NCBI RefSeq assembly: GCF_056746865.1
Contig: NZ_CM163382.1
DNA: 64,000 nt
Strand: one strand, 5' to 3'
Position 1 is the first letter of the stretch. Each line of letters opens with the position of its first letter. The position numbers are program-made. Positions 38,901 to 47,900 of the stretch are shown here, piece after piece.

Positions 38901-41900
38901 TACTCTCACTCTTCTCAAAAGATAATGTGGAGGGAGGGAAAGCCAGAATGCAGCCCATCAGGTGGGACGATTATGCCGTCCGGGTTATGAATGGTGGACG
39001 TATGGTGCAGCTATATAATAAATCGAAACCAATATATTCCCCACTGACTTACCGTTTTACAGATGAAAGTGGTGAAGAGCGTATGGGGTATTACGCTCCG
39101 GTATTTTCGCTGATTGATGGTCAGTTTATCCCTGTTACTTGATTAACCTGTTGGGCTACAAATCAGGATGTCCGGTAAGGTGATTATTACTGAGTTAAGC
39201 ACCTTACCGTTTTTTAAATTTTTTGTCGCTGATATTCCAGACAGGAAAACAATATGCCTTTAGCTGCCAGATTAAACGACAAAGGTACCGGCACAGGGAA
39301 AGATCACGTAACGCTGCTTTTTTGTACTAAATAATTCGCATTTTATGTTTAAAATTTGAGATATTCCTCATTACCTGAGGCTGTTTTTTATTACTTATAC
39401 ATGATCAAATACTCCTTACATAATTAAGGGGAACAAAATGGAACTTAAAAATTGATGGAACATATTTCTGTTATTCCCGATTACAGACAAGCCTGGAAAG
39501 TGGAACATAAATTGTCGGATATTCTACTGTTGACTATTTGTGCCGTTATTTCGGGTGCAGAAGGTTGGGAAGATATAGAGGATTTTGGGGAAACACATCT
39601 CGATTTTTTAAAACAATACGGTGATTTTGAAAATGGTATTCCTGTTCACGATACCATCGCCAGAGTTGTATCCTGTATCAGTCCTGCAAAATTTCACGAG
39701 TGCTTTATTAACTGGATGCGAGATTGCCATACTTCAGATGATAAAGACGTCATCGCAATTGATGGAAAAACGCTCCGGCACTCTTATGACAAGAGTCGCC
39801 GCAGGGGAGCGATTCATGTCATTAGTGCGTTCTCAACAATGCACAGCCTGGTCATCGGACAGATCAAGACGGATGAGAAAACCAATGAGATTACAGCTAT
39901 CCCAGAACTTCTTAACATGCTGGATATTAAAGGAAAAATCATCACAACTGATGCGATGGGTTGCCAGAAAGATATTGCAGAGAAGATACAAAAACAGGGC
40001 GGTGATTATTTATTCGCTGTAAAAGGAAATCAGGGGCGGCTTAATAAAGCCTTTGAGGAAAAATTCCCACTGAAAGAATTAAATAATCCAGAGCATGACA
40101 GTTACGCAATGAGTGAAAAGAGTCACGGCAGAGAAGAAATCCGTCTTCATATTGTTTGCGATGTCCCTGATGAACTTATTGATTTCACGTTTGAATGGAA
40201 AGGACTGAAGAAATTATGCGTGGCAGTCTCCTTTCGGTCCATAATAGCAGAACAAAAGAAAGAGCCAGAAATGACGGTCAGATATTATATCAGTTCTGCT
40301 GATTTAACCGCAGAGAAGTTCGCCACAGCAATCCGAAACCACTGGCACGTGGAGAATAAGCTGCACTGGCGTCTGGACGGTGTGCCGCAGGAACACAAGA
40401 TAGCTGCATAAGGATACGCAGTTAGCTTTTGTATAAGCTCATAAAGAGATGGTGGAAGGCCCACCGGGATCGGCTGTCGGAAGCAGATTCCAAACCACTT
40501 CATGCTGCTGTGGTAAAGAGCCATGGTAGTGAGCGATGAAGTAAAGCGTGAGTGAAAACTCAGCAGGTAAGATACTCATGAGACGAGTGAACCCGAACCC
40601 ATGTTGACGCGTCGTAAACCAGAGACTGACATCAAAACCGAAGGGGCGTCCAGCCTTCGGGATAAGTCTGCGAGTGAATTCCGAATGCTGCGCAGACGGT
40701 GTCCGGCGTAAAGTGGGCGTGACGGAGTATCAGGCTCTTCCTGGGAACTGCGGGAACCTGTCGTTGTGATGATAAGGGAGAAATGCAAGTCACTGAATTG
40801 GCGAGCATGAAAGTACCGATGCACAGCACAGGGACGGAGCCGTTCGTAGTAGTGATGAAGCTTCTGTAATGGAGGTGGAGCGAAGGGGCGGCATCAGACA
40901 GTCTTTGGACAGTGTTCAACTGAACATGTTCAGGAGGAGACAATGACAAAGACAAAAGCGTTTAACATTGATAAGTCACTGGTGGTCAGCGCGTACAGGC
41001 GAGTGAAGACCAGTGCAGGCGCGGCGGGAATTGATAAGCAATCGCTGGCGGACTTTGATAAACGGTTAGTTGATAATCTGTACAAAATCTGGAACCGACT
41101 TTCTTCAGGAAGTTATTTCCCACCGGCAGTGAAAGCGGTGGCAATTCCGAAGAAATTGGGTGGAGAGAGAATTCTGGGTATCCCGACAGTCAGCGATCGT
41201 ATCGCGCAGACGGTGGTAAAACTGGCCTTTGAGCCACAGGTTGAGCCACATTTTCTGGCAGACTCTTACGGCTACAGACCGAATAAATCGGCACTGGATG
41301 CTATAGGGGTAACGCGTAAGCGTTGCTGGTATTACGACTGGGTACTGGAATTTGACATCAAAGGGCTGTTCGATAACATCCCGCACGAACTGATAATGAA
41401 AGCCGTGGACAAACACAATCCGGCCCGGTGGGTAAAATTGTATATACAGCGGTGGCTGACAGCGCCGATGGTGATGTCAGACGGAGAAGTCAGAGCACGA
41501 ACAATGGGAACGCCGCAGGGAGGTGTCATAAGTCCGTTGCTGGCAAACCTGTTCATGCATTATGTGTTTGATAAATGGCTGGCAAAATATTATCCGAAAG
41601 TGCCGTGGTATCGATATGCTGATGATGGCATTTTGCATTGTCACAGCGAAGCAGAAGCGACTGAAATGCGAGAAGTATTACGCAAAAGATTTAGCGAATG
41701 CGGACTGGAAATGCATCCGGAGAAAACGCGAGTTATCTACTGCAAAGATGGAAGCCGGAAGGGTGATTATGAACATACCATGTTCGACTTTCTGGGGTAC
41801 ACATTCAGGCGACGCGTAGTAAAGAACGTTAAGCGAAACAGTCTGTTTGTAAGTTTTACCCCCGCAGCGAGCAAATCAGCGCTAAAGGCAATGCGTCGGG

Positions 41901-44900: not shown

Positions 44901-47900
44901 ATCTGCGATAATTTCGTGCAAACTCTGCAATTAAATGCTTATCCGGTATTAATCACAGAGATGGAAATATCACAATGATTAATAACATAATTACTGCAAA
45001 TAATATCGTAATTTTGAAAATGGTAATTCTGTTCACGGCACCATAATTAGAGTTATGTCTTGTATCCGTTCAGTATAATTTCACGAATGCTTTATTAACT
45101 GGATGCGAGATTGCCATTCATCAAATGATAAAGACGTCATCGCAATTGATGGAAAAGCGCTTCCACACTCCTATGATAAAAGTGGTCGCAGGGGAGCGGG
45201 CTTTCGTAGTCTTAGCCCGACTCTCCCCGGCCCTAAACACAACACCCACTCACCACAACCTAAACTCATCCGCATCCCGCCATGCCGGAAACTTTTCTCT
45301 ATATTCCCGCAATGCCGCCATCGACAGCTCCGCATCAATGCGCGTTGCCTGATGCGCGTCGGCGGTGGCGATAATCTCGCCCTGTGGATTAATCACCCGG
45401 CTGTCACCGCGATAATGGCAGCCGTTGCCATCGCTGCCGACGCGATTGCATCCCGCCACATACGCTTGATTCTCAATCGCGCGGGCCGTCAGCAATGCCT
45501 GCCAGTGCAGAGAGCGCGGAGCCGGCCAGTTGGCGACGTACAGGGCGAGGTCGTAATCGTTGAGATTGCGCGACCACACAGGAAAACGTAAGTCGTAGCA
45601 CACCAGCGGCAAAATACGCCAGCCGCGCCATTCCACAATCACTCGCGCATTGCCCGCTTTATAATGCAGATGCTCATCTGCCATGCGGAACAGATGACGC
45701 TTATCATAAAAATGTACCGTGCCGCCTGGCTCAACCAGCAAAAAGCGGTTAACCGAACCAGACTCCGTTTGTAATGCAACACTGCCTGCAATCAGCGCAT
45801 TGCACTGCTGCGCTTTGGCTGTCATCCAGTTCACTACGTCATCTTGTGCTAGCGACGAAGCTGCCGCTTCCATGGCAAAGCCGCTGGTAAACATCTCCGG
45901 TAGAACGATCACATCGCGTCCGGTAATATCTTCCAGTTGACGATCAAAATGACGCAGGTTGGCAGGACCATCCATCCACACCAGTGGTTGCTGCAAAAGC
46001 GTAATCTTCAAACCAGGCACGGTGTACAACTCCTTTATGCGAAGGGTTTTATAACTTTAACACCTTATCAGGCAGTTGCCTTAGCGCAGAATAAATTGAT
46101 AACAAATGCTGATATTGGAAATATCTGATTTGCAAATTATCGTGTTATCGCCAGGCTTTAGGAGGTTAATAACATGGGCAGGATAAGCTCGGGAGGAATG
46201 ATGTTTAAGGCAATAACGACAGTCGCCGCTCTGGTCATCGCCACCAGTGCAATGGCGCAGGATGATTTAACCATTAGCAGCCTTGCAAAGGGCGAAACCA
46301 CCAAAGCTGCGTTTAATCAGATGGTGCAAGGGCATAAGCTGCCTGCATGGGTGATGAAAGGCGGTACTTATACTCCCGCACAAACCGTAACGTTGGGAGA
46401 TGAGACGTATCAGGTGATGAGCGCGTGCAAACCGCATGACTGTGGCTCGCAACGTATCGCTGTGATGTGGTCCGAGAAATCTAATCAGATGACGGGGCTG
46501 TTCTCGACTATTGATGAGAAAACGTCGCAAGAGAAACTCACCTGGTTGAATGTGAACGATGCGCTTTCGATTGATGGTAAAACGGTGCTGTTCGCGGCGT
46601 TGACCGGCAGCCTGGAAAACCATCCGGATGGTTTTAATTTTAAATAATTAGCGGATAAAGAAACGGAGCCTTTCGGCTCCGTTATTCAATTACGCGGCTT
46701 CAACTTTTCGCACTTTCTCCGGCAACTTTACCGGCTTCGTCGCAAGCTCTTCCGGATCAAAGTCATCGACATTAATACTGCGCAGACGGCTTTCTTCAGC
46801 TTTCACAAGAATAGCGGCTTCATCTTTATCAATCAGCCCCTTCGCCAGCGCGTTATGCGCCAGTTCATCCAGACGGGTAAACGGCAGGTTTTTACCCAGC
46901 TCTTTACAGATCCGCTGATGAATTGGGTCGGCGGCAATCACATCCACCAGCGCCTCTTCCAGTAAACCAACCGGGTTATGCTCGCTCGGGGTCAGGTACT
47001 GACCGCGACCAATACGTGAACGGGTGGCGTTCGGCACTTGTAAAATCTTCGCCACCTTATGATCCAGCTTGTCAGACGGTGCCAGATAATGACGTCCGGT
47101 CGGGAAGATCACCACATTCAGCAGCCCGGCAACCACGCGGTTCGGGAAGTTTTGCAGTAAATCGTCCATCGCCTGCTCTGCCTGATACAGCGCATCCTGT
47201 ACGCCCCAGTGCACCAGCGGCAGGTCGGCTTCATTACGGCCTTCGTCGTCATAACGCTTCAGAACGGCAGAGGCGAGGTAAAGCTGGCTTAAAATATCCC
47301 CCAGACGTGCCGAGATACGCTCGCGACGTTTCAAGCTGCCGCCCAGCACAGCCATCGAGACATCAGAAAGCAGGGCGAGGTTGGCGCTCAGGCGGTTCAG
47401 GTGCTGATAGTAGCGTTTAGTGGCATCGCCGGTTGGCGTGCTGCTGGTTAAACCGCGCGTCAGGCCCAGCCAGAAGCTGCGAACTTTGTTGCTACCGACG
47501 TGACCGATATGTTTGAACAGCAGTTTATCGAACGCGTTTACGTCATTGTTCTTCGCCGCTTCCATCTCTTCCAGCACGTACGGATGGCAACGAATCGCCC
47601 CCTGACCGAAGATCATCATGCTACGGGTCAGAATGTTGGCCCCTTCAACGGTGATGGCAATCGGTGCGCCCTGGTAAGCACGGGCCAGGAAGTTGCTCTG
47701 CCCGAGCATAATGCCTTTGCCACCAGTGATATCCATCGCATCAATAATCGACTGCTGCCCACGGTGGGTACAGTGATACTTAACGATAGCCGACAGCACG
47801 GCAGGTTTTTCACCGAGCATAATGCCGTAGGTAATCAGCGATGCCGCAGCATCCATTACATAAGCGTTTCCGGCAATACGCGCCAGCGGCTCTTCAATCC

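Follow-up and report, generated by a model that had tools for sequence, protein, structure and literature searches.

In Escherichia coli, the interval between aspV and yafV can carry directly repeated copies of the H-repeat, and unequal crossing-over between such IS copies, by homologous recombination, is a textbook deletion mechanism. This raises the question of what these copies are and whether they delete the DNA that lies between them, as an initial annotation had proposed for a segment with two ORFs and, more broadly, as an explanation for the variation of the whole interval between strains. We analyzed a stretch of 64,000 nucleotides (contig NZ_CM163382.1), referred to here as the window, whose two tRNA-Asp genes are aspU (of rrnH) and aspV, by repeat searches, protein and RNA family matches and genome comparison. 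With a probability of roughly 0.85, the best overall explanation of the locus is a graveyard of ISAs1-family IS (H-repeat / ISEc1) at the distal edge of the aspV-adjoining T6SS-1 island (Table 1).

Table 1. Coordinates of the features of the H-repeat locus in the window.
Feature	Coordinates	Strand	Evidence or remark
H-repeat copy 1 (ISEc1-like, ISAs1 family)	39294..42474	+	terminal inverted repeats at 39294, 42474
Longest perfectly identical copy 1/copy 2 tract, 112 nt	40268..40379	+	matches 43471-43582
1891-nt group II intron, probably E.c.I2 (bacterial class D)	40380..42270	+	RF01999, RF00029, comparison with copy 2
ltrA, reverse transcriptase/maturase, 416 aa	40943..42193	+	TIGR04416; WP_001306804.1
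Spacer, copy 1 right end to copy 2 left end	42475..42495	.	21 bp
H-repeat copy 2, complete ISEc1, 1291 bp	42496..43786	+	inverted repeats; NF033564
ISAs1-type terminal inverted repeat pair, 47 bp, CAGGGCAAGAGCAT ... ATGCTCTTGTCCTG	43823..43869	.	0 and 1 mismatch
orf167, hypothetical protein	43896..44399	+	no family match
orf170, PFL_4695-family ICE protein (DUF2859)	44466..44978	+	TIGR03765, PF11072
H-repeat remnant abutting yafV 3' end	~44998..45219	+	repeat search, alignment

Three H-repeat copies were linked by the repeat search far above chance (39319-39811, 42521-43014 and 44998-45198). In the 64-kb window, 9 occurrences of the terminal inverted repeat CAGGGMAAGAKCAT compare to 1.67 expected, and by pattern match it marks 39294, 42474, 42496 and 43786 exactly; inverted repeats starting with CAGGGAAAGAT bound both tandem copies (39294/42474 and 42496/43786). 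The earlier description of ISAs1-family H-repeats lying head-to-tail, 21 bp apart, was accurate, its coordinates being exactly those of the terminal inverted repeats. The transposase of copy 2 is intact (378 aa, 42640-43776), scores 413.8 bits against the ISAs1 transposase equivalog NF033564 (cut-off 70) and is named ISAs1-like element ISEc1 family transposase by PGAP, without a pseudogene flag. Copy 1 had been read as one H-repeat of 3.2 kb; its ends were placed correctly, but it is not a single 3.2-kb element, the intron inside having been overlooked. It spans 3.2 kb because this group II intron splits its transposase gene, and without the intron its 5' part (39294-40379) and 3' part (42271-42474) make up an H-repeat of 1290 bp. 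The gene is moreover frameshifted by a 1-bp deletion in an A-run at codon 4, and PGAP labels copy 1 in identical genomes as two partial ISAs1 transposase pseudogenes. With the intron removed, copy 1 is 95.0% identical to copy 2 with one gap column, so the two are not recent duplicates. The 25 nt after the left inverted repeat differ completely between them, and spliced copy 1 equals copy 2 over a block of 152 nt across the intron insertion site.

The pair shares with H-repeat/ISEc1 the terminal inverted repeats, the length of 1291 bp, the 378-aa DDE transposase and the position downstream of T6SS/Rhs-type effector cargo, the T6SS cargo genes upstream of the tandem pair coding here for a DUF4123 protein, a 523-aa protein and a 336-aa protein. 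In the 1990s, the Hill laboratory reportedly found the H-repeat (H-rpt) downstream of E. coli Rhs elements. The window differs from this in nothing essential, having two diverged tandem copies, a decayed third and a possible 47-bp relic. The tandem H-repeats beside yafV in SE11 were considered as a counterpart of the 21-bp junction and rejected, the first SE11 copy being a different, truncated ISAs1 member that directly abuts the second. The H-repeat of S88 combines copy-1 and copy-2 alleles in a mosaic, and the 50 bp following it show a weak local match to the spacer (11/12).

The intron lies in sense orientation in the copy 1 transposase gene, just past a conserved 13-residue motif, and its boundaries were set by comparison with the uninterrupted copy 2. 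Rfam matches identify a ribozyme core of domains I-IV plus the catalytic domains V/VI, with RF01999 at 40451-40568 (105.5 bits, gathering score 36) and RF00029, for domains V/VI, at 42195-42270 (58.3 bits, gathering score 40). The 5' end, GTGTG at 40380, fits GUGYG; the 3' end, fixed by the copy 2 comparison, reads ...CUCACC rather than the usual AY, and the length of 1891 nt is that of the catalogued E.c.I2. The 7 nt that end the upstream exon (CTGGACG) have their complement in CGTCCAG at 40647-40653, a predicted exon-binding site, and, from reading the sequence, we propose GACGC at 40606-40610 as a candidate second exon-binding site. The ltrA ORF is uninterrupted, scores 412 bits against TIGR04416 (cut-off 300), encodes no endonuclease domain and bears the PGAP label ltrA, WP_001306804.1, in identical genomes. 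Compared by length, host IS and chromosomal neighbourhood, the window intron showed no difference from E.c.I2, the copy E.c.I2-1 of UMN026 (NC_011751 269264-271154) having all three in common with it. Knoop and Brennicke and Ferat et al. are reported to have been the first, in 1994, to note E.c.I2 within an H-repeat ORF, and Dai and Zimmerly reportedly surveyed it in 2002.

At an identity of at least 99%, the intron is found in 172 genomes and, among the 3 full-length matches listed, in one place per genome; in most other E. coli genomes the exon junction is found solely in its uninterrupted form, that is, as empty homing sites. The homing site of copy 2 at 43582/43583 is identical in sequence and unoccupied, and a search across genomes for the intron in copy 2 gave no instance, its sole match (BEC1-S17-ESBL-09, discussed below) being a recombinant and not a product of homing. 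Judged by copy number, the intron would thus seem currently immobile or nearly so. A single intron copy with most homing sites empty is a trait that the window lineage and E.c.I2 have in common; the catalogue in which E.c.I2 and its target, 'Rhs IS' (ISEc1-5), are listed gives a site occupation of 20% in UMN026 (PMC3522654).

The third H-repeat had been recognized as internally deleted, which is correct; it is also 5'-truncated and extends over ~44998-45219 instead of 45010-45208. It consists of IS positions ~319-512 fused to the last ~25 bp at an 8-bp microhomology (GGGGAGCG), and lacks the left inverted repeat and ~80% of the body. S88 and E600003 share this internal-deletion junction. The locus is that of the K-12 pseudogene yafF (b4503), which has the same right junction with the yafV 3' flank and differs in retaining IS positions ~1001-1292. 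E. coli B and numerous A/B1 strains have a full-length H-repeat at the site, about half of the E. coli genomes in an even sample of 60 have a (near) full-length one adjoining yafV, and different lineages keep different pieces of this yafV-side copy. The K-12 and window remnants have decayed independently from the full-length copy. Upstream of the ORFs, the 47-bp inverted-repeat pair is predicted to form a hairpin (-16.3 kcal/mol, z = -4.9), and it may be the minimum that is left of a fourth ISAs1-family element, or just a hairpin. The same 47 bp resemble the left end of the diverged ISAs1 element of SE11.

Both ORFs between copy 2 and the remnant had been listed as unknown, which applies to orf167 (43896-44399, no family) and not to orf170 (44466-44978, PFL_4695/TIGR03765/DUF2859). 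For orf167, searches of Pfam and NCBIfam gave no match, homologues occur in E. coli only, and a 68%-identical allele again has as neighbours a DUF2859 gene and, near yafV, an H-repeat. The orf170 product matches TIGR03765 with 120.6 bits (cut-off 59.75) and PF11072 with E = 2.4e-28, starts with a hydrophobic, signal-sequence-like segment, and is left over, as an orphan, from an ICE transfer module. Genomes of various phylogroups, 758 in all, carry the two-ORF segment. H-repeat sequence lies in the same orientation on both sides of it, as if copy 2 and the remnant were a composite transposon that had brought in the two ORFs as cargo. This is exceedingly improbable, as the left end of the remnant and the greater part of its body are gone, so that two functional IS ends are not available, no target-site duplications are present, a 76%-identical two-ORF allele in another genome lies beside a differently placed H-repeat near yafV, pointing to old vertical residence, and D10 has the two-ORF module without any upstream H-repeat. 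Target-site duplications were sought around copy 1, copy 2 and the unit of both, and no common 8-10-bp repeat was found; the insertion history can therefore not be reconstructed and earlier rearrangements are likely. Since the loss of target-site duplications is expected after recombination or adjacent deletion, it was not counted against ISAs1-family membership.

Recombination was followed in the genomes that have the left junction of the window, about 175 of 5426 complete genomes, with hybrids being read from public assemblies. Three of these about 175 genomes have, between the same flanks, a single hybrid H-repeat with one clean change from copy-1 SNPs to copy-2 SNPs. In strain 300444 the switch lies at alignment columns 997-1108, the crossover interval being the 112-nt identical tract at 40268..40379, and in GF60 at columns 880-932, the intron being lost from both; in BEC1-S17-ESBL-09 (BEC1) it lies at columns 1289-1306, with the intron kept and copy 2 lost. 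Collapse removes either the intron and one IS-equivalent (3203 bp) or copy 2 and the spacer (1312 bp). As the three hybrids have three different crossover points, the tandem pair does recombine; the three collapse events are independent, and the pair collapses occasionally by unequal crossing-over. For the tandem pair, these hybrid elements bear out the view of directly repeated copies as recombination substrates, and they resemble a textbook IS-IS deletion in leaving a hybrid copy with a single SNP switch and losing exactly one repeat unit plus the spacer. The crossovers are probably RecA-type homologous exchanges, at least for the identity tracts of 53 nt and 112 nt. The crossover tract of BEC1 measures 18 nt, which is short for RecA-dependent exchange.

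Collapsed repeats likewise yield clean hybrids, every hybrid is a singleton, and 300444 is a chromosome-level 'whole genome shotgun' record, so an assembler might have collapsed the 1.3-kb tandem repeat and the hybrids would then be no evidence of recombination. We consider such artefacts unlikely, given that three assemblies have three different switch points, that GF60 and BEC1 were deposited as complete genomes, that a copy divergence of 5% is easily resolved by long reads, and that the 18-nt switch tract of BEC1 is too short for a k-mer graph mis-join. It is very unlikely that a single H-repeat is ancestral, the tandem having arisen later by duplication or a second insertion and the single-copy genomes not being deletion products. 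In B2 strains such as S88, only one H-repeat, a decayed one, does lie upstream of these two ORFs, but a single copy kept from the ancestor cannot have a copy-1-type left part and a copy-2-type right part with a different switch point in each of three strains, the two copies differ by 5%, including the wholly different 25 nt, and the proteins encoded by the cargo genes, orf167 and orf170 are the same in single-copy and tandem genomes.

The (IS)2 tandem dimer is a reactive transposition intermediate described for IS30, IS21 and IS911, and the abutting ends in the window, with their head-to-tail order, short spacer and an intact transposase in copy 2, could be taken for such an active junction, in which rearrangement would proceed via the transposase and not by homologous recombination. 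An active dimer is nevertheless extremely improbable: at 95.0% identity the copies are no replicative dimer, the spacer measures 21 bp whereas a few bp are required, the structure is stable in 168 of the about 175 genomes, the derivatives seen are homologous hybrids rather than transposition products, and transposition of the H-repeat (H-rpt) is reported never to have been observed so far (PMC3032704).

Unlike the prediction of the initial annotation, textbook-type deletion is here confined to the tandem pair: the two ORFs that lie between copy 2 and the remnant are missing from no genome of the lineage, and the predicted segment was never seen deleted. A search for shortening by at least 1.4 kb between the cargo genes and yafV returned only 300444 and GF60, both of which retain the two ORFs. 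With a length of ~190 bp, an identity of ~84% and uninterrupted identity over at most 20 nt with copy 2 and 32 nt with copy 1, the remnant is a poor recombination substrate, and its shortness and divergence probably keep its recombination below any appreciable rate. E600003, which has IS positions 1-~540 and the deletion junction of the remnant beside yafV, a change of SNP type near alignment column 440 and nearly all of the T6SS missing, was considered as a recombinant of an upstream copy and the remnant; it was not counted, its left flank being unrelated to the window.

The whole arrangement is kept in 168 genomes, in all of which ISAs1, ltrA and ISEc1 are annotated by PGAP/RefSeq, and it is fixed and vertically inherited in one lineage of ~3% of the complete genomes, including strain 042. 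As an explanation for the variation between aspV and yafV, the H-repeats account for part of the breakpoints found by genome comparison: homology between B2 and the window lineage resumes exactly at the copy 2 right end, and K-12 is truncated within the H-repeat adjoining yafV. They do not account for a breakpoint that adjoins IS2 at about 44444, for an IS1-mediated insertion of OXA-48 DNA within orf167, or for the loss of the whole island, with aspV lying about 100 bp from yafV. A search for a tRNA-derived attachment repeat where the island ends on the right, near 45220-45250, found none.

Taken as a graveyard, the locus would have formed from an old H-repeat adjoining yafV, which would have decayed by microhomology-mediated internal deletion and 5' truncation to the present remnant, and from two further, diverged H-repeats that came to lie head-to-tail downstream of the T6SS cargo genes. 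Into copy 1, which is also frameshifted, an IS-homing group II intron, probably E.c.I2, would have inserted; copy 2 still encodes an intact transposase, and the two ORFs would be the leftover of an ICE-type module and not IS cargo. It is doubtful, though conceivable, that the build-up of ISAs1 ends here is more than passive decay, in that H-repeats might insert preferentially beside existing H-repeat ends and then act as portable homology, exchanging T6SS effector-immunity cargo modules between phylogroups. Four H-repeat/ISAs1-type relics lie within 6 kb in the window, the same spot is occupied by a tandem pair in SE11, by ISEc26 in O157 and, in roughly half of E. coli, by a full-length copy, and the cargo switch from B2 to the window lineage (cpe1/cpi1 to DUF4123-523aa-336aa) ends exactly at the H-repeat boundary.

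The arrangement is ordinary, known and already annotated in RefSeq, and its significance beyond housekeeping is small, a 3.2-kb "H-repeat" being resolved as an IS that hosts a known intron, probably E.c.I2. IS/intron tandems have been argued to be recombination-prone (PMC3522654), and three natural tandem-IS collapses in about 175 genomes, although rare, fit this argument. The hybrids could be used as lineage markers, and the locus offers a natural test bed for why E.c.I2 skips an identical site 3.2 kb away.

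We found the two tandem H-repeats (ISEc1, ISAs1 family) at the positions that the initial annotation had assigned to them, with coordinates and 21-bp spacer confirmed as exact by the terminal inverted repeats: the ISAs1-type repeat CAGGGMAAGAKCAT, with 9 occurrences in the window where 1.67 would be expected, sits exactly at 39294, 42474, 42496 and 43786. A repeat search of the window moreover paired 39319-39811, 42521-43014 and 44998-45198, the last falling within a decayed third copy (the remnant) next to yafV. The H-repeats are thus real, but one significant feature had been missed, namely a group II intron in copy 1. 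Copy 1 owes its excess length solely to this insert, without which it is 95.0% identical to copy 2. The 47-bp pair of inverted repeats that follows copy 2 may be the minimal relic of a fourth IS, a MITE-like element or a structure resembling a terminator.

Features of the H-repeat region and its surroundings, in window coordinates
Feature	Coordinates	Properties
T6SS cargo	35630-39142	DUF4123 adaptor, then 523-aa and 336-aa proteins; upstream of H-repeats
Copy 1	39294-42474	3181 bp; 1-bp deletion in codon 4
Intron in copy 1	40380-42270	1891 nt; first bases GTGTG; group II domains I-IV (Rfam RF01999, 105.5 bits), V/VI (RF00029, 58.3 bits)
Intron positions 54-156	40433-40535	~100-nt piece with 86%-identical relatives elsewhere
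CGTCCAG	40647-40653	pairs with last 7 nt of upstream exon
Intron ORF	40943-42193	group II reverse transcriptase/maturase (TIGR04416, 412 bits)
Copy 2	42496-43786	canonical 1291-bp element; intact 378-aa transposase (NF033564, 413.8 bits)
Inverted-repeat pair	43823-43869	47 bp, perfect-looking, ISAs1-type, CAGGGCAAGAGCAT ... ATGCTCTTGTCCTG; 36 bp 3' of copy 2, 26 bp 5' of orf167; strong hairpin (-16.3 kcal/mol, z = -4.9)
orf167	43896-44399	no family match
orf170	44466-44978	PFL_4695 ICE protein family (TIGR03765, 120.6 bits; DUF2859)
Remnant	44998-45219	IS positions ~319-512 fused to last ~25 bp at 8-bp GGGGAGCG repeat; about 84% identity to other copies; ends about 30 bp from yafV stop codon
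ISEc31, flhA pseudogene, lafU	~53500-57500	3' of rayT; IS3-family ISEc31, then truncated flhA and lafU (35520-39530 in L001, a genome identical over 38000-46200)

As annotated in a genome with 100% identity across 38000-46200, the window runs from rrnH-aspU through dnaQ-aspV into a T6SS-1 cluster (tssM, tssA ... tssB, hcp and a truncated vgrG), three cargo genes, the H-repeat region and finally yafV, ivy and fadE, and the H-repeat region is therefore located at the distal edge of the aspV-adjoining T6SS island. The vgrG upstream of the cargo is flagged as truncated by PGAP. Neither the 523-aa nor the 336-aa cargo protein has an NCBIfam match; they may form an uncharacterised effector/immunity pair, and the 336-aa gene region has a related copy, with ~87% identity, beside a PAAR gene in other strains. 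Beyond yafV, the flhA pseudogene and lafU are what commonly remains of the lateral-flagella (Flag-2) cluster, and yafO is annotated with an internal stop in the genome identical over 38000-46200.

The whole 38000-46200 arrangement is shared by 168 of 5426 complete E. coli genomes, and the junction of cargo and copy 1 by 175. To find shortened versions, we used synthetic queries consisting of unique flanks alone, which are joined into a single match only if the interval between them is shortened. The left flank combined with the right flank of copy 2 identified one genome, strain 300444, in which these flanks lie exactly 1291 bp apart; the cargo flank combined with the yafV flank, which detects any shortening of at least 1.4 kb, identified 300444 and GF60 only; and a query placing the intron in copy 2 identified BEC1-S17-ESBL-09 (BEC1). 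Alignment at the 60-odd sites that separate copy 1 from copy 2 revealed clean hybrids in these three public assemblies. The 300444 hybrid is of copy-1 type to column 996 and of copy-2 type from 1149, with the crossover in the 112 identical nt that immediately precede the intron, and has lost 3203 bp, intron included. The GF60 hybrid switches between columns 879 and 933, in a 53-nt tract, and has likewise lost the intron; that of BEC1 switches between 1288 and 1307, in an 18-nt tract, and keeps the intron, having lost copy 2 and the spacer (1312 bp). A single H-repeat could in principle be the ancestral state, so that single-copy genomes would not be deletion products; the switch at three different points speaks against this and argues for three independent deletion events. 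The expectation that directly repeated copies recombine is thereby borne out for the tandem pair, and the three hybrids among 175 genomes are a count and not a rate, these genomes not being phylogenetically independent. Within its copy-1-type part, the GF60 hybrid (L013) also carries two isolated copy-2 alleles, at columns 189 and 453, which suggests that gene conversion had transferred short patches between the two copies before the deletion took place.

The segment between copy 2 and the remnant, which the initial annotation had considered possibly deletion- or rearrangement-prone, is stable: orf167, orf170 and the remnant are retained in 300444, GF60 and BEC1, and loss of the two ORFs was seen in no genome of the lineage. 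Such stability is consistent with the remnant being a poor recombination substrate, as its longest stretch of identity is 20 nt with copy 2 and 32 nt with copy 1. Homologues of orf167 were found in E. coli only. In another E. coli genome, a 68%-identical allele again has a DUF2859 gene beside it, as well as a full-length H-repeat near yafV that is separated from the yafV flank by an extra ~390 bp; from this recurrence, the ORF pair appears to be a long-resident remainder of an ICE-type module rather than IS cargo.

The intron matches E.c.I2 of UMN026 in length, host element and chromosomal neighbourhood, and is named here on that basis. For UMN026, Leclercq and Cordaux (2012, PMC3522654) list a single class D copy of E.c.I2 'in a Rhs region' (269264-271154, 1891 nt) and a homing-site occupation of 20%; they name 'Rhs IS (= ISEc1-5)' as the target of both E.c.I2 and E.c.I9. 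At an identity of at least 99%, the intron was found in 172 of the 5426 complete E. coli genomes, at one place per genome in the three full-length matches listed, and in most other E. coli genomes the exon junction occurs in uninterrupted form only, i.e. as empty homing sites. Copy 2 lies 3.2 kb downstream, matches spliced copy 1 perfectly for 152 nt across the insertion site and was never found occupied, the one match to a query joining intron end, copy 2 exon and copy 2 flank being a recombinant. The intron thus appears to be inherited vertically and, judging from copy number only, to have little or no mobility. An unannotated ~100-nt piece resembling intron positions 54-156 occurs once in each of more than 2000 E. 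coli genomes and probably corresponds to the E.c.I9 fragments listed 'in a Rhs region' (PMC3522654).

An H-repeat beside yafV is ancient and widespread. A synthetic query, in which the yafV flank was joined to a full-length H-repeat, was searched for and 60 evenly spaced matches were sampled: roughly half were full-length in one or two pieces and about 15% had no H-repeat beside yafV. EC-10, the only one of the latter examined, has ~100 bp between aspV and yafV, with homology picking up again 23 bp past the end of the H-repeat. At this place E. coli B carries an intact H-repeat, SE11 two tandem decayed ones after vgrG-Rhs-ydcD, and O157 ISEc26; K-12 keeps IS positions 1001-1292 alone (annotated yafF), and B2 strains and the window lineage keep IS 323-512 plus the end. 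The remnant's internal-deletion junction is common to S88 and E600003, so this deletion is an old event. The SE11 pair (L008 6850-9400) is a second, independent head-to-tail ISAs1-family pair directly adjoining yafV, its first element being diverged, 3'-truncated and joined without a spacer to the left inverted repeat of its neighbour. E600003 (L011 5976-6510), which has lost nearly the whole T6SS cluster except a tssA fragment, carries beside yafV an H-repeat combining an intact left end with the remnant's junction; its SNP type switches near IS position ~400, and it may be a recombinant of an upstream copy and the remnant.

The initial annotation had suggested that the H-repeats could explain the variation of the aspV-yafV interval, unless breakpoints elsewhere proved unrelated to them. 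Two breakpoints do involve these elements: B2 strain S88, which carries DUF2169-cpe1-cpi1 as cargo and then a single decayed H-repeat, regains homology to the window precisely at 43787/43788, where copy 2 ends on the right, with 50 extra bp at the junction, and the K-12 truncation point lies inside the yafV-adjoining H-repeat. However, the D10 breakpoint at about 44444 is IS2-adjacent, in two B2 strains orf167 is interrupted by OXA-48 plasmid DNA bounded by IS1, and the variation in island-less strains is likewise unrelated to H-repeats, which are therefore one contributor and not the general driver. Species-wide, the variation has several causes. The insertion in the two B2 clinical isolates (L005 9373-9430, L006 8985-9000; window ~44160) is a large, chromosomal pOXA-48-type block including blaOXA-48, parM and umuC.

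Every component is already described, namely H-rpt/ISEc1, E.c.I2 in that IS, the yafF pseudogene and deletion between direct IS repeats, and RefSeq annotation covers them all. The earlier interpretation was partly right. H-rpt/ISEc1 has been reported 3' of Rhs/T6SS cargo, with transposition never observed (PMC3032704), and IS/intron tandems have been predicted to be recombination-prone (PMC3522654). On a small scale, the three hybrids illustrate that predicted recombination in nature.
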